A stretch of 64,000 bases of DNA. Source: an uncultured Chloroflexia bacterium. Its GTDB lineage: Bacteria > Chloroflexota > Limnocylindria > Limnocylindrales > CSP1-4. This document shows, piece by piece, positions 12,827 through 62,018 of the stretch (position 1 is the stretch's first letter; the number at the start of each line of letters is the position of its first letter). Where the stretch lies: contig CAVRGY010000009.1 in assembly GCA_963720825.1 (NCBI GenBank), positions 155,665 to 219,664 of the forward strand. Direction: 5' to 3'. The notes below the pieces were generated by a model, which saw nothing but the letters and a program-made list of their open reading frames with translations, was not told the origin of the DNA and did no database searches. The position numbers and the translations under genes were made by a program.

Positions 12827-12917
12827 GGTGCCGGCGGGCGGTCATGGACGGCCCGTCGCTTGACACGCGCTGGTGCACCGTTCCACCCTTCCGGGAACCC
12901 CACGGAGGCAGTCCACG

Positions 12918-15301: not shown

Positions 15302-15792
15302 GCTGGCAGCTGGTCGTCAACGGCGACCCGGTATCGGTCGACGCGCCGGGCATGCGGCGGCTGCTCGACGTGCTCCGCGAGGACCTCGGGCTCACCGGCA
15401 CCAAGGAGGGCTGCGGGGAGGGCGAGTGCGGCGCCTGCACCGTGCTGATCGACGGTGAGGCGATCCTGAGCTGTCTCGTCCCGGTGTGCCAGGTCGAGGG
15501 TGCCGACGTGCGCACGGTTGAGGGCCTCGCCCCGGCGCCCGGCCAGCTGGGTGTGCTCCAGGACGCGTTCCTCGAAGCGGGTGGCGCCCAGTGCGGGATC
15601 TGCACCCCGGGCATGCTGATGGCCGCCAAGGCGTTCCTGGCCTCGGGCGCCGAACCGACCGACGGCGCGATCCGCGAGGCGATCGCGGGCAACCTGTGCC
15701 GGTGCACGGGCTATACCAAGATCATCGATTCGATCCGGCTGGCCGCCGAACGGACTGGAGCGGGCGCCTCCCCGGACGGAGGACCGGCCTGA
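15298..15792 (+). CDS. xanthine dehydrogenase-family [2Fe-2S]-binding small subunit
   Basis: Carries 'GCGEGECGACTV' and 'QCGICTPGMLM...NLCRCTGY'. Its ATG overlaps the upstream stop (ATGA). Confidence 0.9.
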   Translation: MSWQLVVNGDPVSVDAPGMRRLLDVLREDLGLTGTKEGCGEGECGACTVLIDGEAILSCLVPVCQVEGADVRTVEGLAPAPGQLGVLQDAFLEAGGAQCGICTPGMLMAAKAFLASGAEPTDGAIREAIAGNLCRCTGYTKIIDSIRLAAERTGAGASPDGGPA

Positions 15793-16673
15793 TGCCCGTC
15801 GAGCCCCCGGTCGTCTCGCCGCGCTCGCTCGCCGAGGCGTTCGCGCTGCTGGCCGAGCAGCCATACCGCCCGCTGGCCGGCGGCACGGACCTGCTCGTCC
15901 AGCTGACCGGCGAGCTCGGTCCGGCCCCGGAGCGCGTCCTCAACCTGTGGCAGCTGGACGAGCTCCGCGGGATCGAGGTGCGGGGCAACGTCCTCGAGCT
16001 CGGGGCGCTGACCACGTATACCGGGATCCGGCGCTCCGCCGCCTGCCAGGCGCACGCCCCCTCGCTCGTGGACGCCGCCGCAACGATCGGGGCGGTGCAG
16101 ATCCAGCATCGGGGCACCATCGGCGGCAACGTGATGAACGCCTCCCCGGCCGGCGACACGCTGCCGGTGCTGCTGGCCCTCGACGCGGTGCTCGTGCTGG
16201 GCAGCACGACCGGCGAGCGCGAGGTCGCCGCGGCCGACTTCTGGCCCGCGTACCGGCGGACCGCGGCGCGTCCGGACGAGCTGCTCGTGCGGGTCCGGAT
16301 CCCGGTGGTCGCGGACCGCGAGCAGCGGTTCCGGAAGGTCGGCACGCGACGCGCCCAGGCCATCTCCAAGGTCGTGGTCGCGGCGGCGTGGCGCGGCGTG
16401 GATGCCTGGCGGGACGTGCGGATCGCGCTTGGCTCGGTGGCCCCGACCCCGATCCGGGTGTCCGCGGCCGAGGCCGCGCTCGAGGGCCGTCCGCGCGACC
16501 TCGCATCGATCGAGGCGGCGGTCGCGGCGCTGGGATCGGCGATCAACCCCATCGACGACGTCAGGTCGACGGCCGCCTACCGGCGCGAGGCCGCCCGGCG
16601 GGTCGTGCGGCGGCTGCTCGCCGAGGCCGCCGGGGTCCATGGCGACGCGACGATCCACGGAGGTGCAGCGTGA
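15792..16673 (+). CDS. xanthine dehydrogenase-family FAD-binding subunit
   Basis: Carries 'PLAGGTDLLVQL', 'IQHRGTIGGNVMNASPAGD' and 'DDVRSTAAYRREAA'. Its start overlaps the upstream stop (TGATG). Confidence 0.85.
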   Translation: MPVEPPVVSPRSLAEAFALLAEQPYRPLAGGTDLLVQLTGELGPAPERVLNLWQLDELRGIEVRGNVLELGALTTYTGIRRSAACQAHAPSLVDAAATIGAVQIQHRGTIGGNVMNASPAGDTLPVLLALDAVLVLGSTTGEREVAAADFWPAYRRTAARPDELLVRVRIPVVADREQRFRKVGTRRAQAISKVVVAAAWRGVDAWRDVRIALGSVAPTPIRVSAAEAALEGRPRDLASIEAAVAALGSAINPIDDVRSTAAYRREAARRVVRRLLAEAAGVHGDATIHGGAA

Positions 16674-17540
16674 CCGAGCTCGGCCCGAACCGGTACGGCA
16701 AGCAGTCGATCCGGCTGGTGCGCGTGATCCGCGGACCCGTCGACCGCGTCCGCGACCTCACCGTGGACGTGTCGCTCGAGGGCACGTTCGAGGCGGCCTT
16801 CCTCGACGGGGACAACGCGTCGGTCGTGGCGACGGACACCATGAAGAACACGGTGTACGCGCTCGCGCCCGAGCACCTCACCGGCGCCATCGAGCCGTTC
16901 GCGATCGACCTCGCGCGCCACTTCGTCGACGTCCGATGCCGTCGCATCCGACGCCGTGTCGGCGGCCACCGTGACCATCCGCGAGCACGCCTGGGAGCCG
17001 ATCGGGGCCGGTGGTGCCCCGCCTCCCGATGCCTTCCGGCGCACGGGTGGCGCGATCCGGACCGCGGTCGCCGTCGCCTCATCGGCCGGGGCCGCCCCGA
17101 TCACGGTCGACGGCGGCATCGAGGATCTGGTCGTCATGAAGACCCGGCGCTCCGCGTTCTCGGGCTTCGCACGCGACCGCTACACGACGCTGCGCGAGGT
17201 GCGCGACCGGATCATGGCCACCCGCGTCAGCGCAACGTGGCGCCACGCGGGCACGACCGCGGACTGGGACGCGCGCCACGACGGGCTCGTGCGCACGTTG
17301 CTGGCCACCTTCGCCGACCACGACAGCGAGTCCGTCCAGCATTCGATCTGGGTGATCGCGAACGCCATGCTGGCCGCCGAGCCCGGGATCACCGAGGTCA
17401 CGATGCGGCTGCCGAACCTCCATCACTGGCTGGTCGACCTGGCGCCGTTCGGCGGCACCAACGAGGGCGAGATCTTCGTGGCCACGAGCGAGCCCTACGG
17501 CATGATCGAGGCGACCGTCCGCCGGTCGGCCGGCGCGTGA
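16670..17540 (+). CDS. urate oxidase (uricase), one frame break near 16935
   Basis: GTG 16670 overlaps the upstream TGA. 'YGKQSIRLVRV...DGDNASVVATDTMKNTVYALA' is the uricase N-terminus. The C-terminal part continues in ORF 16956..17540 ('SVQHSIW', 'LPNLHHW', 'EPYGMIEATV'). Confidence 0.8.
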
Positions 17541-19143
17541 CCGGTCGCGTGACCCGGCTCGCGCCGGGGGTCGAGGTCGACGGCCCCGATGTCGCCGGTG
17601 CCGACGAGATCCTGACCGCGGAGGCGGCCGCGTTCCTGGGTGATCTCGAGCGCCGGTTCCGCGACGAGCGCGTCTGCCCTGCTCGGGCGTCGCGCGGAGC
17701 GCCACGCGCGCATCGATGCAGGGGAGCGGCCCGGCTTCCTCGCCGCGACCGCGGACATCCGGGCGGCAACGTGGCAGGTGGCGCCGGCGCCGGCGGACCT
17801 CGACGACCGGCGGGTGGAGATCACCGGACCGGCCGAGCCCCGGATGATGATCAACGCCCTCAACTCCGGCGCGTCCGTGTTCATGGCCGACTTCGAGGAT
17901 GCGCTGAGCCCCGGCTGGGCCAACATCGTCGGCGGCCAGGTCGCGATCCGGGATGCCGTCCGGCGGACCCTCGCATTCGACACGCCCGAGAAGTCGTACC
18001 GCCTCAACGAGCGCACCGCGACGCTGCTCGTCCGGCCGCGCGGCTGGCACCTCGAGGAGCGGCACCTGCTGGTCGACGGCCGCCCGATGTCCGCGAGCCT
18101 GTTCGACGCGGGCCTGTTCCTGTTCCACGACGCCGCCGAGGCGCTCGCCCGCGGGACAGGGCCCTATCTCTACCTGCCCAAGCTCGAGTCGCACCTCGAG
18201 GCGCGGCTGTGGAACGACGTGTTCGTCCATGCCCAGGCCGCGGCGGGCGTCCCGCGGGGGTCGGTCCGGGCCACGGTGCTGATCGAGACCATCCTCGCCG
18301 CGTTCGAGATGGACGAGATCCTGTACGAGCTCCGCGACCACGCCGCGGGCCTCAACGCCGGTCGCTGGGACTACATCTTCAGCGTGATCAAGCGGTTCCG
18401 CGGACGACCCGGCGTTCGTGCTCCCGGACCGGGGCCAGGTGACGATGGCCGTCCCGTTCATGCGCGCCTACACGCGGCTGCTGGTCGCGACCTGCCACCG
18501 GCGTGGCGCGCACGCGATCGGCGGCATGTCCGCGTTCATCCCCAACCGCCGCGAGCCGGAGGTGACGGCCAACGCGCTGGCCAAGGTCCGCGAGGACAAG
18601 GAGCGCGAGGCCGGCGACGGGTTCGACGGCACCTGGGTCGCCCACCCGGACCTGGTGCCCGTGGCGCGCGAGGTGTTCGACCGGGTGCTGGGCGACCGGC
18701 CGAACCAGAAGACGGCACCGGGCGACGCGTCGGCGACGGCATCGGCGCTGCTCGACGTGACCGTGCCCGGTGGGCGGGTCACCGAGGCCGGCGTCCGGCA
18801 GAACATCAGCGTTGCCATCCGCTATCTCGCGGCCTGGCTGGGCGGCAATGGGGCGGCCGCGATCGACAACCTGATGGAGGACGCCGCGACGGCGGAGATC
18901 TCGAGGTCGCAGCTGTGGCAGTGGCGGCGCCACGCGGTGGCCCTCGACGATGGGGCGCCGTTCACGGCCGACCGATACCGCGCCATCCGCGACGCCGAGC
19001 TGGAACGGATCGGGTCCGGCGGGGCGGCGGGGGAGGGGAAGCCGAACGTGTATCCGAGGCGACCGCGCTGCTCGACCGCCTGGTCCTGGACGATGACGTT
19101 CGCGGAGTTCCTGACCCTCGACGCTTACCGCCACCTCGCCTGA
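17537..19143 (+). pseudogene. aceB: malate synthase A, about 4 frame breaks (near 17675, 18402, 19035, 19095)
   Basis: GTG 17537 overlaps the uricase stop. Conserved blocks lie in three frames: '[17 protein letters not shown]', '[32 protein letters not shown]', '[18 protein letters not shown]', '[10 protein letters not shown]', 'MAVPFMRAY', '[11 protein letters not shown]', '[16 protein letters not shown]', '[14 protein letters not shown]'. Confidence 0.8.
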
Positions 19144-19203
19144 CGCGACCGGGCGGCGCCGCGCATCGTCCTGCCGACCGGGCCGGCGCGGCTGGAAGCA
19201 CGC

Positions 19204-20603
19204 CTAGCGCATCGGCTCCAGCTCGCGCTCGACGAACCGACCGTAGCCTCGCTGCCCGACGAAGACCCCGTCGCGGACGACGAACCGGCCGCGGACGATC
19301 GTCGACCGGACGGCGCCCCGGACCTCGCGGCCCTCGTAGGGGGTGTAGTCGCTCGAGTGGTGAAGTTCGGCGGCGCGGATCGTCCGCTGCGCCGCCGGAT
19401 CGAACAGCACCAGGTCGGCGTCGCGACCCACCTCGATCGCTCCCTTCGCGCGCAGCCCGAATAGCCGGGCGGGCGTCGTCGACAGCCGGTCGACCAGGCG
19501 TTCCACGCGGGATCCGGCCGCCGGCGACGCCTTCGTCCCAGGCAAGCGTCAGCAGCGTCTCGATCCCCGGACCGCCGTTGGAGATCCGGTCGAACGATTC
19601 GCGCCACGACTGCTTCTCGATGCCGATCCGGTCCGGGACGTGGTCGGTGGCGATCAGCGACAGCGAGCCATCGGCGAGCCCGTCCCACAACGCGTCGGGG
19701 TTGCCCGGCGCCCGCAGCGGCGGCGAGATCACGAAGCGGGCGGCGACCTCCGGCGGGGCGTCGTAGCGATCCTCGGTCAGCGTCAGGTACTGGGGGCACG
19801 TCTCGGCGAACACCGGCCGCCCCTCATCGCGCCCGCGGCGGACGGCCGCCAGCGCCTCCGCGGAGGACAGGTGGACGACGTACAGCGGCGCATCGGCAGC
19901 GCGCGCGAGCGCGATCGCGCGGGTCGTCGCCTCGGCCTCGACGTATGGCGGCCGCGAGCTCGCGTGGAACCGCGGCGCGACCTCGCCGGCCGCGAGGTGG
20001 CGCGCCGTCAGCGACTCCAGGATGGTCCGGTTCTCGCAATGGACCTCGAGCATGCCGCCGTGCGCGCCGGCCGCGGCGAGCGCCCGGAACAGCGTGGCGT
20101 CGTCCACGCCGAAGTCGTAGACCATGAACGCCTTGGCGGTCGGGACGCCGGCCTCGATCACCCGCGGCAGCTCGCCGACCGGGTCCGCCTGCATGGCGGT
20201 GACCACCAGGCTGAGCGCGACATCGACCGCCGCGTCGCCGTCGGTGGCCGCCCGCCATTCGCGGAGCCCGGTCACCAGCGACCGCGCGGCCGCGGGCGAC
20301 GACCCGGTCCCCGGGTTGTTGAACGCGAGGAACGTGGTCGTGCCGCCGAACGCCGCGGCGACCGAGTCCGCGAAGAACCGGTCCGGCTCGGCGTCGGTGG
20401 CGACCCGCGTGTGCGTATGGACGTCCACCACGCCCGGCAGCACCAGCAGGCCCGCGGCCTCGACGACCTCGCGGGCCGTCCCGGCGAGCGCCGCCCAGGT
20501 CCGGCTCCACGGCCGAGATCCGCCCGCCATCGACGGCCACGTCGGCGACCCGCGATCCGCCCGCCGTCACGACCGTGCCGCCGCGGACGACCAGGTCGGT
20601 CAT
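19204..20603 (-). CDS. dihydropyrimidinase/D-hydantoinase-type cyclic amidohydrolase, two frame breaks (near 20490 and 19525)
   Basis: '[16 protein letters not shown]', 'PGVVDVHTH', 'MLEVHCEN', 'LYVVHLS', 'ETCPQYL', 'ISPPLR' and 'IATDH' are followed by the C-terminus '[17 protein letters not shown]...[11 protein letters not shown]' in ORF 19204..19545. Confidence 0.8.
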
Positions 20604-20605
20604 CG

Positions 20606-21025
20606 TCAGCCCTCGCTGATCTCGATGTCCTGGGCGCCGTCCCACAGGCAGCGACGGCCCATCTCCCGCAGCCGCTCCTCCCAGCCCTCGTCGGGCAGGA
20701 TGGAGGCGAAATGGTTCGCGGCCAGCTGGCCGACCTTGGACGAGGTCGTGCAGGCGCCATACGGGAAGAAGATCTCGCATTCGGAGACGCCGCCCGGGTA
20801 CAGCGCGAGGTGCCCGGGTGCCGGGTGCGAGGTGTGGTGCTCCCAGCCCACATCCGGTCGCAGGTCGCCGTACGGGATCCAGGTGGACTCGCCGCTCCAG
20901 CGGCAGTGGATCAGGCGCGCGTGCAGGGGGAGCATCGCGCGGATGATCTCGATCGTTCGCGGGGCCTCGGGCTCCCAGCGGGCGCTAAAGTGCAGGTCAC
21001 CGACACGGATCGACAGCTCGCTCAT
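20606..21025 (-). CDS. DUF3830 (cyclophilin-like fold) family protein
   Basis: Intact 139-aa ORF, 'MSELSIRVGDLHFSARWEPEAPRT...'. Its stop is 2 nt from the hydantoinase start. Confidence 0.6.
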   Translation of the reverse strand: MSELSIRVGDLHFSARWEPEAPRTIEIIRAMLPLHARLIHCRWSGESTWIPYGDLRPDVGWEHHTSHPAPGHLALYPGGVSECEIFFPYGACTTSSKVGQLAANHFASILPDEGWEERLREMGRRCLWDGAQDIEISEG

Positions 21026-21039
21026 CGGCGGAGGATACG

Positions 21040-21370
21040 GTGCCCGACGGCCAGTCCGACCATCTCCACGCACGTGCTCGATACCGCGAGCGGCCGTCCC
21101 GCGCCCGGGATCGCCGTCCGCTGCTGGCGGCTGGACGGCGACGCAGCCGAGGCGGTGGGCGACGGCGTGACCGACGACGACGGCCGGATCCGCGACCTGC
21201 TGGGCGGCGTGCCGCTGGTACCCGGCCTGTACCGGCTGTCGTTCGACCTGGGATCCGGGCGCTTCTTCGAGCGCGTCACGCTCGAGGTCCGGATCGACGA
21301 CGCCGCCCGGAGCCACCACGTCCCGCTGCTGCTGGCGCCGTACGGGCTGACGACCTACCGCGGCTCCTGA
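21040..21370 (+). CDS. uraH: 5-hydroxyisourate hydrolase (transthyretin-like), probable frame break near 21058
   Basis: 'ISTHVLDTASGRPAPGIAV' through the C-terminal 'YRGS*' signature is in the frame of ORF 19640..21370. That frame has no start codon. GTG 21040 (GGAGGA 4 nt upstream) is one frame off. Confidence 0.75.
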
Positions 21371-21373
21371 CGC

Positions 21374-21921
21374 GTGGGGTCCGCGGCAGCCCGGCCCGGT
21401 TCCATCGAGCATCGCCGAGCTCGACGCGCTCGACGGTCCCGCCTGCGCCGACGGCGCTGGCGCCGCTGTTCGAGGGCGCGCCACGGTTCCTGGCCCGGCT
21501 CGCGGCCGCCCGCCCGTTCGGCGATGCGGCGACGCTGTTCGCGCGGGCGCGCGCGATCGCCCACGCGATGCCGGAGCCCGAGCAGGTCGAGCTGATCGAC
21601 GCCCACCCCCCGCTGGGTGCGCCGCCCGGGTCCGTCTCGGCGCTGTCGTTCCGCGAGCAGGGCTACGACAACGAGCGCGCGGAGGCGGCCGCCGATACGG
21701 AGCGGGTTCGCGTGGCGACGGAGCTGGCACGGCTCAATGCCGCCTACGAGCGTCGGTTCGGGTTCCGCTACTGCGTGTTCGTCGCCGGCCGGCCACGCGC
21801 GGCGCTGCTGCCCGAGATGGCGGCGGCGCTGCAGGGGGACCGGGAGCCCGAGCTGCAGCGTGCCCTGGACGCGGTGATCGACATCGCCGCCGACCGCTAC
21901 CGGACGCTCGGCCCGCGCTGA
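21374..21921 (+). CDS. uraD: OHCU decarboxylase, at least 2 frame breaks in the first ~90 nt
   Basis: 'LAPLFEGAPRFLARLAAARPF', 'ELIDAHPPLG', 'FREQGYD' and 'YERRFGFRYCVFVAGR' are present. The N-terminal 'IAELDALDGPA' lies in a different frame. The start was taken as GTG 21374. Confidence 0.7.
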
Positions 21922-21937: not shown

Positions 21938-22520
21938 TCAGTCCGAGCAGGTCCAGCTGATGGTTCCCGACTCGGTGCCGGACTGCGGCGCCGATGTCGG
22001 ACAGCTCCGAGAACGACCCCTGGCCCGAGCCGTCCGCGTTGAGCGTCACGGTCGAGGTCCCGGTCGTGCCGCGGACGAACGTGTCGTCGCCGATCACCAG
22101 CGAGCCCAGGCTGTCGGCATAGGTCGCCGGGCCGTGGAAGTCCGCCGTCGAGACCATGAACGCGAAGGTCAGGCTCTTGCCGCCGATCTGCGTGTCGGCA
22201 CCGGCGGGCGGACCCGGGCTCAGCCAGGACCCGACCCCGGTCGGGTTGAACGTCGCGTACTCCGTGCACGAGGCGTAGCCGGTGCCGGTGTCGTTGTCGA
22301 CGAATGAGCCCTGGACGTTGTCGTCGCCGGTGAAGTCGACCTGGACGTTGAAGATGACCTGCCCGCTACCCCCGACGTCCCCGGTGGCCTGGTCCGGCTG
22401 GCTTGCCGCCGGACTTGCCGACGGACCGGACCCGCACCCGGCCAGTGCGATCACCAGTGCCGCAGCGATGATCGAACCACGCAGGCGTCCGACGGTAAGC
22501 ACGTCTTCCCTCCGGGACAT
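21938..22520 (-). CDS. lipoprotein of unknown function, one frame break near 21985
   Basis: The lipobox is 'VIALAGC'. The mature part is Gly/Thr/Asp-rich. The likely true C-terminus 'GTESGTISWTCSD*' is in another frame and ends at TGA 21940..21938. Confidence 0.55.
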
Positions 22521-22762
22521 TCAAGGGGTGGATGCGCGTCGGCCGGAGCATAGGACTCGCGTCGCATTCCCGCAGATTCGGGCCCGATCGGGCCCCGCCG
22601 GGAGCGGCGAGGACGCTGTGCGCGGGCCAACCCGATAGACTTCGGGCACCGGAGGATTCTCGCCGCGGGCGCGGATCGCTCCTCGCGGCACGTCACACCG
22701 ATCCGGCCGCCCGGGGGCATCGATCTCGCGCACCGACAGGCACACACCAGCGGAGGGAACGC

Positions 22763-24424
22763 GTGGAGAATCCGGTCATCGTCGCGATCGACGACGATCC
22801 GCAGGTCCTGCGAGCCGTCGAGCGCGACCTGCGCAGCCGGTTCGGGTCGGCCTACCGGATCGTCGCCGCGGACAGCGGCGCGACCGCTCTGGACGTGGTC
22901 CGGCGGCTCAAGCTGCGCAGCTCCGCCGTCGCGCTGTTCCTGGCCGACCAGCGAATGCCGGGCATGACCGGGGTCGAGTTCCTGACCGCGGCGCGCGAGA
23001 TCTACCCGGACGCAAAGCGGGTGCTGCTGACCGCGTACGCGGACACCGAGGTGGCGATCACCGCGATCAACACGATCCAGCTCGACCACTACCTGCTCAA
23101 GCCCTGGGACCCGCCCGAAGACAAGCTATACCCGGTCCTCGAGGACGTGCTCGACGACTGGCAGGCGGGCTTCCTGCCGCCGTTCGAGGGCGTGCGCGTC
23201 ATCAGCCATCGCTGGTCCGCCCGCGCGCACGAGATCAAGGACTACCTTGCCCGCAACCAGATCCCATACCGCTGGCTGGACGTCGAGATCGAGCCCGAGG
23301 CGTCCGAGCTGGCGGTCAGCGCCGAGGTGGACGCCGTCCGCCAGGTGATGGTCGTGTTCGGCGACGGATCGCATCTCGTGGCGCCCACCAACGCCGAGAT
23401 CGCGGCCCACGTCGGGCTGCGGACGCACGCCGCGCTGCCCTACTACGACCTGGTGATCGTGGGCGGCGGACCATCCGGCCTCGCCGCCGCGGTCTACGGC
23501 GCCTCGGAGGGCCTCAAGACCCTGATGATCGAGCGCGAGGCTCCGGGCGGGCAGGCCGGGACCACGTCGCGGATCGACAACTACCTGGGCTTCCCGGTCG
23601 GCCTGTCGGGCGCCGATCTTGCCCGCCGGGCGGTGGCCCAGGCCACCCGGCTGGGTGCCGAGATCCTGACCCCGCAGGAGGTCGTCGGGGTCACGGTCGA
23701 GGACCCGTACAAGGTGGTCAAGCTGGTCGACGGCTCCCAGTTGAGCTGCCAGGCGCTGCTGGTCGCGACGGGCGTCGAATACCGCAAGCTCAACCTTCCC
23801 GACGCCGACCGGCTGGCGGGATCCGGCATCTACTACGGCGGCGCGACCACCGAGGCGACCTTCTACCGGGGCGAGCGCGTGGCGGTGATGGGCGGCGGCA
23901 ACTCCGCCGGCCAGGCCGCGGTCTGGCTGGCGCGGTTCGCCGAGCACGTCACGGTCCTCATCCGCGGTGACTCGTTGTCGGCGGGGATGTCCGCCTATCT
24001 CGTCGACCAGATCGCGGCCACCCCGAACATCACGGTCCGCACCGGCGTCAACGTGGCGGCCATCCACGGCGGCGAGACGCTCGAGGGGATCGACATCGTG
24101 GCCAAGGCCGGCGGATCGCAGGAGCGGCTGGACGTCGCCGCGATGTTCGTGTTCATCGGGCAGGCGCCGCGCACGGACTGGCTGGGCGACCTGGTCGAGC
24201 GCGACGACAGCGGCTTCGTGCTGACCGGCGTCGATCTCAAGCGTGTCGGCGACCACCCGAGGGGCTGGCCGCTGGCCCGGGAGCCGTACATGCTCGAGAC
24301 GAACGTGCCGGGGATCTTCTGCGCGGGCGATGTTCGCGCGGCCTCCGTCAAGCGGATCGCCTCGTCGGTCGGCGAGGGGGCGATGGCCGTGCGCTTCGTC
24401 CACCAGCATCTCGCCGACCTGTGA
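22763..24424 (+). CDS. response-regulator receiver fused to a Cys-less Grx-like linker and a thioredoxin-reductase-like flavoprotein
   Basis: GTG 22763 follows GGAGGG. The REC domain has 'IDDD', 'LFLADQRMPGMTG', 'LLTAYAD' and 'LLKPW'. The FAD domain has 'VIVGGGPSGLAAA'. The NAD(P) site is 'VAVMGGGNSAGQAA'. 'FCAGDV' is also present. Confidence 0.85.
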   Translation: MENPVIVAIDDDPQVLRAVERDLRSRFGSAYRIVAADSGATALDVVRRLKLRSSAVALFLADQRMPGMTGVEFLTAAREIYPDAKRVLLTAYADTEVAITAINTIQLDHYLLKPWDPPEDKLYPVLEDVLDDWQAGFLPPFEGVRVISHRWSARAHEIKDYLARNQIPYRWLDVEIEPEASELAVSAEVDAVRQVMVVFGDGSHLVAPTNAEIAAHVGLRTHAALPYYDLVIVGGGPSGLAAAVYGASEGLKTLMIEREAPGGQAGTTSRIDNYLGFPVGLSGADLARRAVAQATRLGAEILTPQEVVGVTVEDPYKVVKLVDGSQLSCQALLVATGVEYRKLNLPDADRLAGSGIYYGGATTEATFYRGERVAVMGGGNSAGQAAVWLARFAEHVTVLIRGDSLSAGMSAYLVDQIAATPNITVRTGVNVAAIHGGETLEGIDIVAKAGGSQERLDVAAMFVFIGQAPRTDWLGDLVERDDSGFVLTGVDLKRVGDHPRGWPLAREPYMLETNVPGIFCAGDVRAASVKRIASSVGEGAMAVRFVHQHLADL

Positions 24425-24434
24425 CCCGCCGCCC

Positions 24435-25841
24435 GTGACGATCGACGATTCGGACCGCGCGCTGCTGCGCCGGGCACCCCTGTTCGCGGAGCTGTCCGAG
24501 GACGACCTCACCGGGGTTGCCGACACCGGGGAGCCCGTCGAGCTGGCACCGGGCGAGCAGCTGGCCGGCGAGGGCGAGCCGGGCGACGCGATGTTCGTGA
24601 TCGTGTCGGGCGAGCTCCAGGTCGTGAAGCGGTCCCGCACGTCCGAGGTCCCGATCGCGGTCCTGGGGCCCGGCGAGATCGTGGGCGAGATGGCGATCTT
24701 CGAGGCGCAGCCGCGAAATGCCACGGTGCGGGCCGTCGAACAGACCCGGGTCATCCGGATCGCGCGCGACGAGATCCTCGCGATCCTGCAGACCCGGCCG
24801 TCGGTGACGCTGTCGATGCTGCGCACGATGATGGGCCGGTTGCGCAACACGGAGTCGATGCTCCGCGAGCAGGAGAAGCTGGCGGCGCTGGGCACCCTGT
24901 CCGCGGGGCTCGCCCACGAGCTGAACAATCCCGCGGCCGCCGTGCAGCGCAGCGCCGCCCTCCTGGAGGACGGCCTCGACCGCTGGGCGGATGCCACCAG
25001 CGCGCTGGGAACCGTCGTCGACGACCAGCAGGACGCGGCGCATCTGGCGGACCTCGGCGCCCAGGTGGCGCGCCACGCCGGGACCGGGGAAGCGCTCGAT
25101 CCGCTTGACGCCAGCGACCGTGCCTGGGAGCTGGAGACGTTCCTCGCCGAGCGCGGCGTCGCCGACGCCGGGGAGCTCGCACCGGCGCTGGTCACGGGTG
25201 GCTGGGAGCGATCGCACCTCGAGCGGATCGAGGCGGAGTTCCCGGGCGAGGCGCTCGGTCCGATCCTGTCCTGGGTCGCCGCCGGCAGCGCGGTCCACGC
25301 GCTCGTGGACGAGGTCGCGACCGGTGCCCGGCGGATCTCCGAGATCGTCAAGGCGGTCAAGGAGTATTCGTTCATGGACCAGGCCCCGGTCCAGCAGGTG
25401 GACGTCCGGTCCGGGCTCGACAACACGCTGGTGATCCTGCGCGCCAAGACCAAGGCGGGGATCACCGTCACCCGCGACTACCAGCCGGACCTGCCCGAGA
25501 TCGAGGCGTTCGGCAGCGAGCTCAACCAGGTCTGGACGAACATCCTGGACAACGCGATCGGCGCCATGGACGGACGCGGCGAGATCCGGATCCGGGCGTT
25601 CGTTCGCAACACCGACCTGGTCGTCGAGATCTGCGACAGCGGGCCGGGGATGCCGCCCGAGGTCCGGGAGCGGATCTTCGAGCCCTTCTACACGACCAAG
25701 CCGCCCGGCAGCGGGACCGGGCTCGGCCTCCACATCTCGCACAACGTGGTCGCCCGCCACGGCGGCCGGATCAACGTCCGGTCAAAGCCCGGCGAGACGT
25801 GCTTCGAGGTCTGCCTGCCCCTGGAGCGCCGCAAGCCGTAG
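24435..25841 (+). CDS. soluble histidine kinase with N-terminal cyclic-nucleotide-binding domain
   Basis: GTG 24435 lies 11 nt after the upstream stop. The cNMP domain has 'GEIVGEMAIF..PRNATVRA'. The H-box is 'LSAGLAHELNNP', the N-box 'NILDNAIGA', G1 'DSGPGM' and G2 'GSGTGLGL'. I saw no hydrophobic TM segment. Confidence 0.85.
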   Translation: MTIDDSDRALLRRAPLFAELSEDDLTGVADTGEPVELAPGEQLAGEGEPGDAMFVIVSGELQVVKRSRTSEVPIAVLGPGEIVGEMAIFEAQPRNATVRAVEQTRVIRIARDEILAILQTRPSVTLSMLRTMMGRLRNTESMLREQEKLAALGTLSAGLAHELNNPAAAVQRSAALLEDGLDRWADATSALGTVVDDQQDAAHLADLGAQVARHAGTGEALDPLDASDRAWELETFLAERGVADAGELAPALVTGGWERSHLERIEAEFPGEALGPILSWVAAGSAVHALVDEVATGARRISEIVKAVKEYSFMDQAPVQQVDVRSGLDNTLVILRAKTKAGITVTRDYQPDLPEIEAFGSELNQVWTNILDNAIGAMDGRGEIRIRAFVRNTDLVVEICDSGPGMPPEVRERIFEPFYTTKPPGSGTGLGLHISHNVVARHGGRINVRSKPGETCFEVCLPLERRKP

Positions 25842-25888
25842 CGTCCGGAGCGGCGGAGCCGGTCGACACGGGGACGCGGTCGGGTCTC

Positions 25889-25903
25889 GGCCCGCCGCGG
25901 GCC
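25889..25903. terminator. short GC hairpin between convergent genes
   Basis: 'GGCCCG-ccg-CGGGCC' forms a 6-bp stem between the stops at 25841 (+) and 25909 (-). There is no U-tract. Confidence 0.25.
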
Positions 25904-25908
25904 ACTTA

Positions 25909-27073
25909 CTAAGCGTCGGGCTGGCCACCCACGCGGCGGCGGACCCGCTGGACCGCGAGGTACCGCTCGCGATCGATGCCCTCGGGGACTCCGCCACCGT
26001 CCATGAACACGAAGCGGCCCTGGCGGCCCGCGATCTCGACCGATTGGCGCAGGCCGGCCTCGATCTCGTCCAGCCCCCGCTCGTACAGGAACTTGTCGAT
26101 CCCGCCGCCGACCAGGGTCAGCCGCGGATGCCGCTCCAGGATCGCGGCAAGGTCCATCCCGTCGGTGCGGTCAACGGGGTTGAGCATGTCCACCCCGGTC
26201 CCGACGATGTCGTCGAGGATGGCGTTGATGTTGCCGTGGCAGTGCATGTGGAGCACCCCGCCACCGGCGTGGACCTCCTCGGCAAGGGCCGCGTGCAAGG
26301 GCCGGAAGTACCGCCGGTAGAGCGCCGGGCTGATCAGCAGGTTCGCGGTCGCACCGAGATCGTCGCAGAACCCGATGCAGTCGACCCCGGCCTCGAGCAT
26401 GTGGCGGGCCGCTCGCATGTTCCAGTCGCCCAGGCGGGCGAGCAGTCGCTCCGCGAGCTCGGGTTCGAGGAGCAGGTTCGCGAGCCAGTCCTGGTAGTCG
26501 CAGAAGAAGTAGTGGCCCCCGGAGAAGTAGCCGTTGACCCAGCCCACCGTGTACTCGCCGGCGGCCTTGAGGTACGCCACGTCGGCCGCGAAGCCCGCCC
26601 ACCGGGCCGGGTCGTCGGGATCGGGCAGCTCGAGCCGGTCGAGGTCGTCGAGCGTCGTGACCGGACGGACGAGCTGGTGCTTGTACTGGGGCGTGATGTT
26701 GTGAAGGTCGCGCGCCCCCGTCTCGTACTCGACCACGAACGAACCGGGCGAGCGCTCCACGACCCGGCTGTTGAACTCGCCCGGCCCCGCGTGCCCGAAG
26801 CAGAAGTTCGCACCTCGCCCGACGCCCGTGGCGACCTGGTCGGTGAAGCGGTTGTAGCGGATCACCGTGTCCAGCTCCGCGGGCTCGTGTGCCGCGAAGC
26901 CGTACACGCCGTCCGGGGGGATGTAGTAGAGGTCCGGCGGGCACGAGCTCCGGCGGCACCAGGCGGCGGGCATCTGCCTCGGTGTTGAACCCGATGTTCC
27001 AGAACGGGATGTAGTCCGGTCGTTCTCCGGCGAGGGTCGCCGCCATCCGCTCACGATTGCTCAACGTTGGCAT
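25909..27073 (-). CDS. uroporphyrinogen decarboxylase (URO-D) family protein, one frame break near 26940
   Basis: The N-terminus 'MPTLSNRERMAATLAGERPDYIPFWNIGFNTE' is in ORF 26171..27073. The remainder ('DCIGFCDDLG', 'VLHMHCHGN', 'MLNPVD') is in ORF 25909..27054. Confidence 0.7.
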
Positions 27074-32118: not shown

Positions 32119-35022
32119 CTATTCGGACAGCGCGAAGGCGACGGCCTCGTCGCTGGTCATCACGCGACCCGCGGCCCACGCGGACCCGAGGACTTCCTCG
32201 TCGGTTTCGCTTCGAAGTCGGGCGATCTGTGCGTCGTATTCCTCGCGTTCGGCCGGCGTCATCCGGGACTCGGAGGCTTCGCGGAGCGCTTCGGCTGCGC
32301 CGAACAGGCGAGCCGCCCGAGCGCCGTCACCCCTCGCGAGCGCCACTGCCGCAAACGACTCGAGCTGGTTCGCGACCGCCCCGCGGTTCCCGGTCCGCTG
32401 CCAGCCCCGGATCGACTCGCGGTACTCGGCCTCGGCCTCGTCGATCCTGCCGTCGTGCCGCAGGGCATGGCCGAGCTCGCTCTGCGCGGAGAGCGCGAAC
32501 CGTCGGTCGTCGAGCGCGTCGAAGCGCGCCCTGGATTCACGGTACCAACGCTGCGCATCGCCCAGCCGGCCGGTCATGGCAGCGACGCGGCCACGAGCCT
32601 GCGCGACGTAGGCGGCGTCGAACGGGTTGGCCGAACGACCGGCGGCCTCGTGCGACCGCTCGAGCCAGCCATCCGCTGCGACCGGGTCGAACTGGGCCTC
32701 GATCATCGCGACCGAGACCGCAATGCGGGACAGACGGCCCCAGTCCCCGAGGTCCGTGGCGATCCTGACCGCATCGTCGGCGACGGAGCGCCACTCGCCG
32801 CGCAGCCCCGCCGGCGCGCTGGGATCCCCGCGAAACAGCCAGACATGGAGGGCGTCGGCGATCGCGACCGGATCCTCCGACGCCCTGGCAGCGGCGAGCG
32901 CCTCGTCGCCCAGCGCGAGCGTCTCCATTCGGCCGCCCATCGCGGCCAGGAACGAGGCGCCCGCGAGCGCACGGGCGGTGAGGCTGGCTCGGGTGCGTTG
33001 GGCCGCTTCCTGATCGGGCGCAGGACTCCGTCGCACGCGATCGACCGCCTGCAGGATGCGGTCGCGCCCCTCGGGTCCCATCGTGCGGGCCTGCCAGTAG
33101 CGGACCATCGAGACGCAGATCTCGAGCCCCGCCTCGGGGCTGGTCTCTGACGCCCAATCGAGCGCCGATCGCACGTTCTCGAGCTCCGTGTCCAGGCGAC
33201 GCAGCCACACCGGCGACTCCGCGCCGTCGAGCCCCCGCTCGGCATCGAGCGCCAGCTGTCGGAAGAACCGCAGGTGCCGGTCCCGGAGCGCCACCGTCTC
33301 GCCGCTCGCGGCGAGCTGGTCCGCGGCGTACTGGCGGACGTCTCGAGCATCCGGTATCGGGTGGAGCCCTCGTGGTCGGCCACGACGAGCGACCGATCGA
33401 CGAGGCGGCCGAGCCCGTCGATGGCGGCGAACCGCGCGGCCGCGTCCGCGCGCTCCGCCCGGGCGGGATCCTCGCCAGCCGCGTCGTCGACGGCGACCAC
33501 GGCCGCGGCGTCGAGCGTCCAGCCACCGGAGAACACGGCCACCCGGCGCAGGAGCCGGCGATCCTCGTCCTCGAGCAGGTCCCAGCTCCAGTCGATGAGG
33601 GCCTGCAGCGTTCGCTGCCGGGGCACCGCGGTGCGGCGTCCGCCCGTCAGGAGGCGGAAGCGGTCCCCCAGGCCCTCCGCGATCTCGTTGGCCGACAGGA
33701 CGTTGACGCGGGCTGCCGCGAGCTCGAGGGCAAGGGGAATGCCGTCCAGGCGCCGGCAGATCTCGACGATGGCCCGCACGTTCGACCGATCGATCGCGAA
33801 GGCCGGGAGGGTCGCGGTCGCACGGTCGACGAACAGCCGGACCGCCTCGGATCGACCGGCCTGCTCGACCTCCGCGTCGTCGATCGCCGCGTCCGGGTCG
33901 CGCGCCTCGCCGGCGAGCGTCGGCAGCGCCAGCGACGGCACGGCGAAGACGGCCTCGCCCTCGACGCCGAGGGGCTCCCGGCTCGTGGCCAGCACGCTGC
34001 AGCGCGGGACAGGCACCGAGCAGCTGATCGGCCACCTCGGCGGCGGCCTCGATGAGGTGCTCGCAGTTGTCGAGCAGCAGGAGGAGCTCCTTCGAGCGCA
34101 GGTAGTCGACGATCCCGTTGATCGGAGGCTGTCCCGGCTGTGGCTGGATGCCCAGGGCGCGGCCGATCTCGGACGTCACGAGCTCGGGGTCACTGACCGG
34201 CGCGAGCTCGACCAGCCAGGTGCCGTCGCGGTACCGGTCGAGGCCGTCAGCCGCGGCCTGGAGCGCGAGGCGGGTCTTGCCGGTGCCGCCCACGCCGACC
34301 AGCGTCACGAGGCGGCTGGTGGTGAGCAGCCGCGCGAGGTCGACCAGCTCCCGCTCGCGACCGACGAACGACGTCGCCTGGGGCCGGAGGTTCGTCGGGT
34401 GCTCGGCGCTCGTTCGCAGGGCCGGGAACGTGCGGCGCAGGCCCGGGGCGACGAGCTGGAAGACCTGCTCGGGCCGGTCGAGGTCGCGCAGCCGGTGCTC
34501 GCCCAGGTCCACGAGCTCGCACCCCGCCGGAAGGCTGCCCGCGACGAGCGCCGCGCTCGCGCCCGAGACGAGCACCTGGTCGCCGTGGCCGATCGCGAGC
34601 AGGCGCGCCACCCGGTTGACCGTCGGTCCGAAGAAGTCGTCATCGCGGACCTCGGCGGTCCCGGAGTGGATCGCCATCCGGACGCGCAGGCGGCCCGTCT
34701 CGGGCCAGCCGTGACGGTCGAGCGCGTGCTGGCCCTCGATCGCCGCGGCCAGCGCGGCCTCGCATTGGTCGAACGCGGCGAGCATCCCGTCGCCGGTCGT
34801 CTTGACGACCGTCCCGCCCGCATCCTCGACGGCCGTCCGGAGCAGGGCGTCATGCGCGGCGAGGGCGGCGCCCATCGCGGCCCGGTGCTCCTCCCAGAGC
34901 CGCGCGCTCCCCTCGATGTCCGTGAACAGGAACGTCTCGGTCCGGGACGGACGTGTCGGCGTCACTGCTCGCCCGATCTCGCTCGCACTCCGGGATTGTG
35001 GGGCCCTGTCGTGCGCCGTCAA
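32119..35022 (-). CDS. class III adenylate/guanylate cyclase - STAND (NB-ARC-like) ATPase - TPR protein, two frame breaks (near 34005 and 33340)
   Basis: The cyclase domain has 'TFLFTDIEGSARLW', 'KTTGDGMLAAF' and 'GPTVNRVARL'. The P-loop is 'GVGGTGKTRLA', followed by 'LLLLDNCEHL'. The middle part is in ORF 32703..34016 ('LDGIPLALELAAAR'). The C-terminus is TPR-like. An alternative start is GTG 34965. Confidence 0.8.
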   Translation of the reverse strand: MTAHDRAPQSRSASEIGRAVTPTRPSRTETFLFTDIEGSARLWEEHRAAMGAALAAHDALLRTAVEDAGGTVVKTTGDGMLAAFDQCEAALAAAIEGQHALDRHGWPETGRLRVRMAIHSGTAEVRDDDFFGPTVNRVARLLAIGHGDQVLVSGASAALVAGSLPAGCELVDLGEHRLRDLDRPEQVFQLVAPGLRRTFPALRTSAEHPTNLRPQATSFVGRERELVDLARLLTTSRLVTLVGVGGTGKTRLALQAAADGLDRYRDGTWLVELAPVSDPELVTSEIGRALGIQPQPGQPPINGIVDYLRSKELLLLLDNCEHLIEAAAEVADQLLGACPALQRAGHEPGAPRRRGRGRLRRAVAGAADARRRGARPGRGDRRRGGRAGRSIRGGPAVRRPCDRDPPGLRDRSVERAGHRRDLPAPGRHSPCPRARGSPRQRPVGQRDRGGPGGPLPPPDGRTPHRGAPAANAAGPHRLELGPARGRGSPAPAPGGRVLRWLDARRRGRGRRRRRGWRGSRPGGARGRGRAVRRHRRARPPRRSVARRGRPRGLHPIPDARDVRQYAADQLAASGETVALRDRHLRFFRQLALDAERGLDGAESPVWLRRLDTELENVRSALDWASETSPEAGLEICVSMVRYWQARTMGPEGRDRILQAVDRVRRSPAPDQEAAQRTRASLTARALAGASFLAAMGGRMETLALGDEALAAARASEDPVAIADALHVWLFRGDPSAPAGLRGEWRSVADDAVRIATDLGDWGRLSRIAVSVAMIEAQFDPVAADGWLERSHEAAGRSANPFDAAYVAQARGRVAAMTGRLGDAQRWYRESRARFDALDDRRFALSAQSELGHALRHDGRIDEAEAEYRESIRGWQRTGNRGAVANQLESFAAVALARGDGARAARLFGAAEALREASESRMTPAEREEYDAQIARLRSETDEEVLGSAWAAGRVMTSDEAVAFALSE

Positions 35023-35128
35023 CTACCCGGGACGTGGTGGTTCGGCGTGGCGATCTCCGTCGCTCTCGAGCGCACGCGAGTCCCTGGGTCGTGCATGGCT
35101 GAGTTGCCAAGCTGCTAGGCTCGCAATC

Positions 35129-37078: not shown

Positions 37079-37210
37079 CAAACCTCTATCCTCTCGCCCG
37101 GTCGCATCGCAGGGCTCCAGATCCCAATGCAGGGTCCACGGAATGCGGATGATCCCGAGAAGCGGGAGAAGGCACCGATTGGGCTTCTTCACACGTTCAT
37201 GGCGGGAAAG

Positions 37211-37286
37211 TGGAGCGGGAGACGGGATTCGAACCCGCGACATTCTGCTTGGGAAGCAGACACTCTGCCAGCTGAGTTACTCCCGC
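37211..37286 (-). tRNA. tRNA-Gly (anticodon CCC), CCA encoded
   Basis: The reverse complement is GCGGGAG-TA-ACTC-AGCTGGCA-GAGT-G-TCTGC-TTCCCAA-GCAGA-ATGTC-GCGGG-TTCGAAT-CCCGT-CTCCCGC-T-CCA. It folds into a complete 76-nt cloverleaf. Confidence 0.93.
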
Positions 37287-37519
37287 TCGGGAGCCTGCCA
37301 ATCCTAATCGAGAGTGCCTGCTGGCTCAAGCGATGCTTGCGACGGAGGCGGTTTCGGGGGGGAGGGCGATGCCGCGCCGCTCCGGTGCCACGGAGCGCGC
37401 ATCCGCCAACCCGTACCTTCGGGTAGTGACCTGATTTGCCGCCTGGATCGAGAGTGGTTCTCCAAGCCTAACGCGCGGACGCTCCCTGCCCGCATGAATG
37501 CAACTCCGAGGGGTGACAC

Positions 37520-37951
37520 GTGGCGAACGCAGCCGTGGTCTTCGAGACGAAGTCGGGACCTGGCCTCCTGGTCCGAGCCGTCTGGTTCCTGTTCGTCGGG
37601 TGGTGGCTGACCGCGATCATGTCGGCCATCGCCTGGGCTGCGATGATCACCATCATCGGGCTACCACTCGGGATCTACCTCATCAATCGCATCCCGACGT
37701 TCATCACCCTGCGGCCCCGTACGCGGCAGATCACGGCCACGATGGAGGCCGGTCTGCTCCGGATCAGCGAGCACAAGCGGAGCCAGCAACCCTGGTACAT
37801 CCGTCTCGTGTGGTTCATCTTCATCGGCTCGTGGACGTCGGCGATCGCGATGATCGTGGCCTGGGTGCTGTGCGTCTTGATCCTGACCTTGCCGCTCGGG
37901 CTACTGCTCTACAACCGGATCCCGTTCCTGGCGTCCCTGTACCGCTACTAG
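37520..37951 (+). CDS. yccF: YccF-domain inner membrane protein
   Basis: 143 aa with a duplicated 'W(F)LFVGWW...IIGLPLG' / 'WFIFIGSW...LTLPLGLL' architecture typical of YccF. The start is GTG. Confidence 0.7.
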   Translation: MANAAVVFETKSGPGLLVRAVWFLFVGWWLTAIMSAIAWAAMITIIGLPLGIYLINRIPTFITLRPRTRQITATMEAGLLRISEHKRSQQPWYIRLVWFIFIGSWTSAIAMIVAWVLCVLILTLPLGLLLYNRIPFLASLYRY

Positions 37952-37965
37952 GGTCGTCGTCGCGG

Positions 37966-62016: not shown

Positions 62017-62018
62017 CG

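Follow-up and report, generated by a model that had tools for sequence, protein, structure and literature searches.

A receiver-fused, cysteine-less thioredoxin reductase-like flavoprotein and its CRP-type histidine kinase in an uncultured Chloroflexia bacterium

Two adjacent forward-strand genes, referred to here as gene A and gene B, were analysed in a 64,000-nt stretch of DNA from an uncultured Chloroflexia bacterium (contig CAVRGY010000009.1; the whole stretch, with about 71% G+C, is called the window, and positions are counted from its first letter). Gene A (22763..24424) encodes a response regulator-flavoprotein of 553 amino acids, in which a receiver is followed by a mycoredoxin-like domain and a thioredoxin reductase (TrxR)-like domain that have both lost their dithiol cysteines. 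Gene B (24435..25841) encodes a soluble histidine kinase of 468 amino acids with a CRP-type sensor. The best reading of the pair, which is judged probable with considerable room for doubt, is that a cyclic nucleotide controls the kinase and that phosphorylation of Asp62 of the receiver gates an NAD(P)H-dependent flavin oxidoreductase working without thiols. The observations from which it starts are the domain anatomy, the intact phospho-relay residues, the loss of the cysteines, the cofactor motifs, the gene pairing and the reuse of the same core with other sensors.

The receiver (REC) occupies residues 5-136 of the gene A product (22775..23170, + strand), including an extended alpha-5 helix at residues 118-136 that was delimited from the secondary structure of the AF2 model. 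Response_reg was matched at residues 6-118 in the Pfam/NCBIfam scan with 53.8 bits against a cut-off of 30.2, the model shows the (b/a)5 fold, and in sequence the domain is nearest to NosR, HupR and RpfG-type receivers. The residues of the phospho-site are all present, namely D10, D11, D12, D62 in LFLADQ (codon at 22946-22948), T90 in LLTAY and K113 in LLKPW, and they are kept in every homologue with a canonical receiver that was checked (at least 52% identity; identities are given relative to the gene A protein unless stated otherwise).

Residues 144-217 (23192..23413, + strand) form a mycoredoxin/NrdH-like thioredoxin-fold domain which is free of cysteine. In the AF2 model, this segment folds as b-a-b-a-b-b-a, which is of the thioredoxin type; the TIGR02200 mycoredoxin model scored 31 bits over residues 145-217, under its cut-off of 89.5, and a profile of the segment matched mycoredoxin-1 of M. 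tuberculosis (Rv3198A, 2LQO) in the PDB with E=4e-8. The counterpart of the WCxxC motif, as aligned with 2LQO and with a redox-active relative described below, is W151-S-A-R-A155 (23213-23227, + strand), WCGYC of mycoredoxin-1 standing opposite W-S-x-R-x. The domain is like mycoredoxin-1 and the NrdH-type glutaredoxins in its fold, in the Trp preceding the active site and in a (L/V)P-x-V...DG..L..PS motif, but has S-x-R-x where mycoredoxin-1 has CxxC. A Pfam scan of this segment alone returned only a chance-level match to DAGK_cat (E=0.011).

The remainder of the protein, residues 227-552 (23441..24418, + strand), is a TrxR-like flavoprotein domain with two Rossmann folds, recognised by Pyr_redox_2 (110 bits, residues 228-549), TIGR01292, phmmer and Foldseek. 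It carries the flavin adenine dinucleotide (FAD) motif GGGPSG (233-238), GGQ (262-264), the NAD(P)H motif GGGNSAGQAA (377-386) and AGD (521-523). The TIGR01292 TrxR model gave 233.4 bits, below its equivalog cut-off of 343.45, and the best phmmer matches in the PDB were genuine TrxRs and AhpF, with E-values from 1e-47 to 1e-26. Residues 229-550 align with residues 7-313 of the 316-320 residues of TrxB, and the two proteins end at the same point. At the redox site, where TrxR has G-V-S-x-C-A-T-C-D-G, the gene A product reads G355-I-Y-Y358-G-G-A-T-T-E364-A365 (23825..23857, + strand); in the HMMER alignment to the TrxR of D. radiodurans (2q7v), G360-A-T-T363-E364 stands opposite C-A-T-C-D, so that both cysteines are lost and the acid-base Asp is replaced by Glu. 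The counterpart of HRRxxxR, the motif for the 2'-phosphate of NADPH, was placed by column counts and alignments at I400-R401-G-D-S-L-S-A-G-M409-S410-A-Y412-L413 (23960..24001, + strand) and has a single Arg left. Compared with the low-Mr TrxB (TIGR01292), the fold and the dinucleotide motifs are thus alike, at about 30-40% identity, whereas gene A lacks CATC, has Glu for Asp139, has HRRxxxR reduced to one Arg and contains an insertion of about 20 residues before the ETS-PG-FAAGD motif.

The AF2 model of the gene A product has a pLDDT of 89.9 and a pTM of 0.83, with a pLDDT of about 67 in the linker at residues 131-140. In Foldseek, it matched the TrxR of L. lactis in the flavin-reducing (FR) conformation (5mh4) with a TMt of 0.95 and a root-mean-square deviation (rmsd) of 1.9 A, compared with about 7 A to structures in the flavin-oxidizing (FO) conformation. 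In the FR state of a true TrxR, the CxxC helix faces thioredoxin. The first-pass annotation had described a receiver with all of its phospho-acceptor residues, a glutaredoxin-like linker with CxxC replaced by WSAR, and a TrxR-fold output with FAD and NAD(P)H sites whose disulfide site reads GGATTEATFY (23825-23870), and had proposed structure prediction and a search for a displaced CxxC as checks. The prediction recovered the receiver, mycoredoxin-like and TrxR-like folds; the receiver residues, GGGPSG and GGGNSAG (377-383) were all located; the linker was identified by its fold and by the 2LQO alignment; and the alignment to 2q7v places the cysteine-free residues 355-365 within that nucleotide range. 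The whole protein contains no CxxC and only two cysteines, Cys329, whose counterpart in E. coli TrxB is a cysteine outside CATC, and Cys520, which lies within the FAD motif GIFCAGD. A hidden CxxC or an alternative cysteine pair was ruled out on these grounds, neither residue being at the ancestral active-site position.

The same loss was found throughout the family. On scanning one genome per GTDB species, at least 557 species-level relatives were obtained, and the best 80 of these loci encode proteins that are 51-97% identical to the gene A product over its full length. They come from Chloroflexota, Cyanobacteria, Acidobacteriota, Gemmatimonadota, Deinococcota, Bacteroidota (Hymenobacter), Actinomycetota, Verrucomicrobiota and Armatimonadota, as well as from Devosia. 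Among 57 diverse homologues (35-88% identity) that were used for conservation counts, there is no variation in the FAD and NAD(P)H motifs or at G355 and Y358; E364 is found in 55 and A365 in 52. Y358, E364, M409, S410 and Y412 are specific to the family and nearly invariant; the former disulfide site has the motif G-[VIL]-[YF]-Y-G-[AGS]-x3-E-A and the counterpart of HRRxxxR is [VI]-R-G-x2-L-x3-M-S-x-Y-L. No column with a conserved cysteine was found in the alignment of the 80 close orthologues; 54 of them have Cys at query position 368, where the query has Tyr368, and four homologues (P0139, P0163, P0211, P0212) contain no cysteine at all. Since no cysteine column is conserved and some members are free of cysteine, thiol-disulfide chemistry was judged not to be the function of the family.

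One relative with both dithiols was present among 150 representatives. This protein (P0267, 407 amino acids, 43% identity to the query core) has WCPDC in its mycoredoxin-like domain and FCATCD with AAEE in its TrxR domain, at sites which align with those of the query. It also has the FAD-domain insertion and the GDVRxGS motif of the family and is missing M-S-x-Y-L. Judging from its sequence, we read it as a redox-active survivor of the ancestral mycoredoxin-TrxR fusion, and it looks like a living intermediate between that fusion and the cysteine-less signalling core.

A search with the core (query residues from about 140 to 552) among 1.84 billion representative proteins showed that it is combined with several kinds of domain, the cysteine-less motifs being kept in each case. 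Representatives were found in which the receiver is replaced by an N-terminal CRP/cyclic nucleoside monophosphate (cNMP)-type domain, in which pairs of EF-hands follow at the C-terminus (P0257, 707 amino acids), in which SnoaL and REC are joined to the core (P0137), and in which the core stands alone (about 410-425 amino acids). In the NCBI names, the CRP-fused form is called 'cyclic nucleotide-binding domain-containing thioredoxin-disulfide reductase' and the other forms 'FAD-dependent oxidoreductase'. The core motif set, all of which is found in the query, consists of G-[VIL]-[YF]-Y-G-[AGS]-x3-E-A, GGGNSAGQAA, R-G-x2-L-x3-M-S-x-Y-L, GDVRxGSxKR and an N-terminal cysteine-less mycoredoxin-like domain, and is common to the REC-fused, CRP-fused, EF-hand-fused and stand-alone members and to a protein of C. 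metallidurans. Since CRP-type or EF-hand domains are joined to this same cysteine-less core in other proteins, the core was concluded to be a modular regulated output. The EF-hands of P0257 hint at control by Ca2+ and recall the NADPH oxidases that are regulated by EF-hands. Many divergent subclades of the REC-fused form (P0128, P0129, P0134, P0145, P0148 and others) have a degenerate receiver, with D62 changed to A, G, S or other residues and the Lys and Thr also gone, and these are therefore pseudo-receivers.

One of the CRP-fused proteins has been purified. ATII-TrxR was found to bind about 1.9 FAD per native enzyme, with Km values of 5.2 uM for NADPH and 4.2 uM for NADH, and to reduce 5,5'-dithiobis-(2-nitrobenzoic acid) (DTNB) at 5.6 per second (Badiea et al. 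2019, PMC6544261). The authors treated it as a genuine high-Mr TrxR, did not study its regulation and did not discuss the missing CxxC; Cys206-Cys223 and Cys376-Cys467 were proposed as the redox centres (PMC6544261). The enzyme is 87% identical to a protein of C. metallidurans (PMC6544261), and the C. metallidurans CH34 ORF (open reading frame) that was taken to be this relative, its accession not being confirmed, has the same cysteine-less motifs. ATII-TrxR and the C. metallidurans protein resemble gene A in having the cysteine-less mycoredoxin-like and TrxR-like core, with GVYY...EA, GGGNSAGQAA and MSxYL in common, and ATII-TrxR differs in that a CRP-type sensor, with a cassette lacking the canonical Arg, is fused directly to the core instead of acting through a kinase and a receiver. 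For the REC-fused form, the REC-TrxR combination was already listed in Galperin's census (PMC5847659). The earlier remark that such fusions are annotated and have no characterised function therefore stands for the REC-fused members, of which no study was found, and falls short in two respects: the combination is in the census, and the CRP-fused form has been purified.

The product of gene B is a histidine kinase with an insertion in its dimerization and histidine phosphotransfer (DHp) domain. Residues 33-120 (24531..24794, + strand) form a CRP/cNMP-type beta-barrel sensor, identified by cNMP_binding (PF00027; residues 35-120, 80.5 bits against a cut-off of 27.5) and by alignment with CRP. A continuous helix is predicted at residues 122-193 (24798..25013, + strand; AF2, HisKA), comprising the C-helix, the signalling helix and DHp helix 1, on which the H-box H161-E-L-N-N-P is located; the codon of H161 is at 24915-24917 and the H-box is invariant in 64 orthologues. 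HisKA was matched over helix 1 only (residues 152-182), with 20.3 bits against a cut-off of 26.9. The hairpin loop of the DHp domain contains a four-helix insertion of about 80 residues (residues 194-270; 25014..25244, + strand), which was delimited from the AF2 model and from conserved spacing: H161 and E303 are 129-153 residues apart, and 137-144 apart in 62 of the 65 sequences aligned. The AF2 blocks of the insertion have pLDDT values mostly of 84-94, with one at 71, and a Pfam scan of the insertion found no family match. The insertion may serve for docking of the regulator or of the zf-UBP protein described below, or act as a second sensor. DHp helix 2 (residues 271-311) and the catalytic ATP-binding domain (residues 319-464), with its N, G1 (DSGPG), F and G2 (GSGTGLGL) boxes, were assigned to 25245..25826 (+ strand) from HATPase_c, which scored 91.8 bits at residues 362-464, and from AF2.

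The best NCBIfam matches of gene B are of the AtoS, ZraS and NtrB type. Its AF2 model, with a pLDDT of 78, matched the kinase cores of ZraS, HK853 and CckA as well as the MtbCRP-cAMP structure (3i54) in Foldseek. No transmembrane segment is predicted in gene B, the maximum 19-residue Kyte-Doolittle value (KD19) being 1.55 and lying inside a predicted DHp helix; this, with the cNMP_binding match, agrees with its previous description as a soluble kinase with an N-terminal cNMP-binding domain.

There is strong contextual evidence that gene A and gene B form a cognate pair. A full-length orthologue of the kinase is the same-strand neighbour of the regulator gene in 70 of the 80 loci, in about ten phyla, which upholds the partnership proposed by the first-pass annotation along with co-occurrence as a check on it. 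The kinase gene is usually 0-100 nt downstream; it is upstream in Hymenobacter, Longimicrobium and Bryobacter, and 1-3 kb downstream in cyanobacteria. The ten loci without a paired kinase are mostly truncated contigs or cyanobacteria, and the same pair is found in annotated records of Deinococcus aetherius, Streptomyces fungicidicus and Tsukamurella. In one Gemmatimonadaceae metagenome-assembled genome (MAG; L018), paralogous CRP-type kinases lie on either side of the regulator gene (2109-3521 and 5376-6332), and here two sensors may feed a single flavoprotein.

A third gene recurs beside the pair in other genomes. It encodes a small Cys/His-rich zf-UBP protein (PF02148, 53 bits; about 87-117 amino acids), which was detected by tblastn in 16 of the 80 loci and at least five phyla, for instance at L015 7727-7990, L061 9156-9470, L086 6696-7049 and L087 6726-7076. 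In Streptomyces fungicidicus and Tsukamurella, regulator, kinase and zf-UBP genes form a three-gene operon with 4-nt overlaps and are translationally coupled. The zf-UBP proteins of Solirubrobacterales end in ...PPSPLGG, a ubiquitin-like C-terminal di-glycine, and such a terminus is the type of ligand bound by eukaryotic zf-UBP domains. The zf-UBP gene is absent from the window. Ferredoxin or flavodoxin genes were not found to recur nearby among the 80 loci, and bestrophin and LtrA genes, seen near the Nostoc and Deinococcus copies, do not recur.

In the window itself, the two genes follow each other closely. Gene A has a GTG start at 22763, 5 nt downstream of a Shine-Dalgarno-like GGAGGG (22752..22757, + strand, read from the sequence), and its frame runs unbroken to the TGA at 24422-24424; this start was chosen, and not an upstream ATG at 22532, because the homologues are all about 553 residues long with the same beginning. 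Gene B, likewise with a GTG start, begins 10 nt after the TGA, its first base being 11 nt past the last base of the stop. The kinase had been placed 11 nt downstream before, and both genes had been called free of frame breaks; the distance is correct, and reading frames of 553 and 468 codons are uninterrupted. A second assembly of this organism (L002, 11673-13080) has gene B split by a frameshift, and so have the MAG loci L006, L013 and L047; these are probably indel errors of sequencing or assembly and not pseudogenes. The domain matches of the two proteins, which were supported by ORF and translation, Pfam/NCBIfam, AF2 and, for gene B, Foldseek, have E-values from 1e-14 to 1e-70, so the domain assignments are not chance resemblance. 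A promoter and terminator scan of 22300-26100 found nothing and is uninformative at 71% GC. At the protein level, the window shows 97% identity to an uncultured Chloroflexota MAG (MFD05684.bin.3.391), and further relatives belong to Limnocylindrales.

With respect to the input signal, the sensor of gene B contains the phosphate-binding cassette G84-E85-M-A...P-R94-N-A-T97-V (24684-24734, + strand; query cassette GEMAIFEAQPRNATV), and alignment with E. coli CRP puts E85 opposite E72 and R94 opposite R82 of CRP. In the cNMP cassette pattern, G-E-x-A...R-[ST/N]-A-[TS], the Glu contacts the ribose 2'-OH and the Arg contacts the phosphate. Comparison of the orthologous kinases (L018-L082) revealed at least four lineage-specific versions of the sensor pocket. 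The canonical form, GE..PR[NST]A[TS], is found only in the kinases of Chloroflexota, Devosia and Trueperaceae; those of Acidobacteriota, Gemmatimonadota and Bacteroidota have G-x-L-P-[FY]-S-R-[ML] at the same site, those of cyanobacteria FFGEIQxLTED and those of Solirubrobacterales TWMGAIAxLTG. The cassette Arg is also missing in all 18 of the one-component, CRP-fused proteins compared. This variation suggests that the ligands differ between phyla, and the input at the level of the family would be a CRP-fold ligand pocket of varying specificity, not a cyclic nucleotide as such.

An ORF for a class III nucleotidyl cyclase with STAND ATPase and TPR parts was observed at about 32119-35022 on the minus strand, some 7 kb from the pair. 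It has the motifs FTDIEGS and KTTGDG (Guanylate_cyc, 32.9 bits), the P-loop GVGGTGKT and TPR repeats; its codon-position GC pattern is atypical, one stretch resembling frame noise, and a frameshift or a mis-joined ORF is possible. On the basis of this ORF, the host organism is probably able to make cyclic nucleotides. Cyclic AMP (cAMP) or cyclic GMP (cGMP) is a reasonable ligand of gene B because the canonical cassette is present and the cyclase ORF is in the window. The suggestion of the first-pass annotation that the signal is cAMP or cGMP is accordingly defensible for the clade of Chloroflexota, Devosia and Trueperaceae and does not extend to the other lineages, in which the cassette is replaced.

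Under the preferred reading, the gene B product would be a cytoplasmic HisKA-type dimer, whose CRP-type barrel most likely binds cAMP or cGMP in this clade. The signal would run from the sensor along the single long helix to the helix of His161, where it would set the balance between kinase and phosphatase activity, and the phosphoryl group would be transferred to Asp62 in the receiver of the neighbouring protein. The extended alpha-5 helix, continued by a short linker, would tether this receiver to a core that is apparently derived from a mycoredoxin-TrxR fusion; having kept its equipment for binding FAD and NAD(P)H and lost both dithiol centres, the core would be incapable of a disulfide relay. 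Because there is no dithiol carrier, reduced FAD would have to hand its electrons directly to an acceptor, and phosphorylation would most likely switch on or off a direct reaction from NAD(P)H via flavin to that acceptor. Candidate reactions are those of a diaphorase or an oxidase, the reduction of quinones, metals or ferredoxin, and NADH/NADPH transhydrogenation; diaphorase, oxidase and transhydrogenase are plausible in view of the use of both NADH and NADPH by ATII-TrxR and of the single Arg left in the 2'-phosphate motif. The switch would probably operate by turning the NAD(P)H domain relative to the FAD domain or via the position of the dead mycoredoxin domain. This mechanical coupling, including the idea that the dead domain is a built-in latch which holds the former CxxC helix, is conjecture suggested by the model.

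The ligand, the phosphotransfer, the direction of regulation and the electron acceptor are the parts of this reading which go beyond the observations, and several points weigh against it. That the output of gene A is truly enzymatic, and on which substrate, is inferred, and the loss of catalytic residues is expected of a pseudoenzyme too. A cyclic nucleotide is not the signal of the whole family, since the cassette is unconserved in most orthologous kinases and in the one-component fusions. When ORFs from the 80 loci were clustered all against all, nothing recurred beside the regulator except the kinase, with its shadow ORFs, and the zf-UBP protein, and none of these hints at an electron acceptor. 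The literature search returned only the census and the ATII-TrxR paper as relevant, with no study of a REC-fused member. Lastly, thioredoxin-dependent reduction of insulin was reported for ATII-TrxR (PMC6544261); this is hard to square with the lack of conserved cysteines, and would contradict the absence of thiol chemistry if it is real and general.

The core might instead be a pseudoenzyme, serving as a scaffold for sensing redox state or NAD(P)H, as a switch for protein interaction (for example, with the zf-UBP protein) or as a phosphate sink for the kinase, with no regulated turnover. All thiol catalytic residues have gone from both redox domains, as this would predict, and the recurrence of the zf-UBP gene in 16 of the 80 loci, with its coupled operon in Streptomyces and Tsukamurella, would supply an interaction partner, although the gene is absent from the window. 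The receivers with A, G or S for D62 in many divergent subclades are typical of modules that act by binding, and the cross-phylum identity, unusually high at 51-60% over 553 amino acids, fits multiple constrained interaction surfaces. However, the most conserved columns are the FAD and NAD(P)H motifs together with the former active-site residues, which argues that hydride transfer is still selected, and ATII-TrxR, whose core belongs to the same family, turns over NADPH and NADH several times per second when given an artificial acceptor (PMC6544261). A pseudoenzyme is considered unlikely.

Two further explanations retain an enzyme and change its chemistry. The protein could be a true disulfide or thioredoxin reductase which uses non-canonical cysteines, or which acts upon a low-molecular-weight disulfide at the flavin itself. 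TIGR01292 is indeed the best-scoring model (233 bits), the source names read 'thioredoxin reductase (NADPH)' and 'cyclic nucleotide-binding domain-containing thioredoxin-disulfide reductase', ATII-TrxR was described with DTNB and thioredoxin-coupled insulin reduction and with proposed cysteine pairs (Badiea et al., PMC6544261), and Cys at position 368 is frequent among close orthologues. Yet the TIGR01292 score stays under the equivalog cut-off of 343, the query has Tyr368, no CxxC and two cysteines that are both off the active site, the fused mycoredoxin-like domain is equally without CxxC, several members have no cysteine, and the cysteine pairs put forward by Badiea et al. lack conservation. 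Such an activity is regarded as very improbable. A regulated TrxR-type ferredoxin/flavodoxin-NAD(P)+ reductase (FNR) of the YumC-like kind would suit the loss of the dithiol, which requires direct exit of electrons from the flavin, and to our knowledge these are the known TrxR-fold enzymes without the redox cysteines. Three of them were matched by phmmer (3ab1, E=4e-18; 5xhu, 3e-17; 3lzw, 3e-16), but TrxRs and AhpF are far closer (E-values of 1e-47 to 1e-35, as against 4e-18 or weaker), and descent is from a mycoredoxin-TrxR fusion that is still extant with both CxxC motifs (P0267). TrxR-type FNRs typically carry a C-terminal extension which stacks on the isoalloxazine; the gene A product ends at the equivalent of TrxB residue 313 and lacks this FAD-stacking extension, and there is no recurring ferredoxin or flavodoxin gene nearby. 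Identity with the TrxR-type FNRs was rejected on the sequence distance and the missing extension, and a regulated enzyme of this kind is held to be quite improbable.

A bolder form of the preferred reading, in which gene A is a gated flavoenzyme, may also be considered. Here, the family would be a 'redox valve', in which a second messenger or phosphorylation directly gates the burning or interconversion of NAD(P)H by a flavoenzyme, acting perhaps as an oxidase making H2O2, a quinone or metal reductase, or a soluble transhydrogenase. It would have evolved by the killing of both dithiols of a mycoredoxin-TrxR fusion and would have come under the control of CRP-type, EF-hand and receiver domains across at least ten phyla, in some cases along with a zf-UBP partner, and the dead mycoredoxin domain may have been kept as a built-in pseudo-substrate or latch. 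This is put forward tentatively, as a possibility that is doubtful as a whole; if true, it would define a new class of two-component output and a bacterial parallel to the EF-hand-regulated NADPH oxidases.

The response regulators characterised so far act almost exclusively on transcription, second-messenger turnover, methylation or phosphatases, and we know of no flavin oxidoreductase among their characterised outputs. In the CheB methylesterase, the PleD/WspR diguanylate cyclases, RpfG with its HD-GYP domain and the RsbU-type PP2C phosphatases, phosphorylation of the receiver gates the enzyme directly, and the same logic is proposed for gene A. Should a receiver indeed gate a flavin oxidoreductase, direct control of redox metabolism would join the outputs of response regulators. 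The covalent union of a thioredoxin-fold domain and a TrxR-type flavoprotein is shared with AhpF and NTRC; in these, CxxC is kept in both modules and electrons pass by dithiol exchange, in contrast to the gene A product, where both modules are cysteine-less. AhpF was the top Foldseek match by E-value over the full length, with no global superposition (TMq 0.38-0.40, rmsd 18-29 A).

The locus is a member of a catalogued and widely annotated family, with basic enzymology available for one paralogous form. The architecture in the census entry is the same as that of gene A, and the Streptomyces and Tsukamurella copies are full-length, with intact receivers and the same downstream kinase. As far as the searched literature shows, loss of CxxC, a dead mycoredoxin domain, a dedicated CRP-type kinase and a zf-UBP partner are not reported in the census. 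Relative to that literature, the double dithiol loss, the dead mycoredoxin domain, the CRP-type kinase with its DHp insertion, the lineage-specific cassettes and the zf-UBP third gene appear to be new. The family is large, considering the number of species-level genomes with a relative, and its members are consistently misnamed 'thioredoxin reductase' despite having lost the thiol machinery, an annotation that needs correcting. It provides a clean case of an enzyme repurposed after the loss of catalytic residues, with P0267 surviving as a redox-active intermediate. Culturable carriers exist in Streptomyces, Tsukamurella, Deinococcus, Hymenobacter and Nostoc, and the system is a good and tractable open problem for specialists rather than a shock.

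The surroundings of the pair were also surveyed. Directly upstream, at about 12800-21400, lies a purine-catabolism cluster, which is not a conserved neighbour of the module; it encodes xanthine dehydrogenase subunits, uricase, malate synthase, an allantoinase/dihydroorotase-like amidohydrolase, a DUF3830 protein, a transthyretin-like 5-hydroxyisourate hydrolase and OHCU decarboxylase. The segment at 35200-38000 has a G+C content of 0.61-0.65, compared with about 0.71 elsewhere, and contains a helicase ORF of the Schlafen-group-3/DUF2075 type (34802-37078, + strand; 187 bits) together with a small membrane protein resembling YccF; possibly, the segment is an island acquired by horizontal transfer. 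Three large DAO + GCV_T genes, which are similar to sarcosine/dimethylglycine oxidases, were found between 43510 and 64000 (43510-46173, within 47478-52478, and 61252-63999). They are accompanied by an electron transfer flavoprotein (ETF) domain, a CCG/4Fe-4S protein and a branched-chain-type ABC transporter, and the region looks like a catabolic island for methylated amines or glycine betaine.

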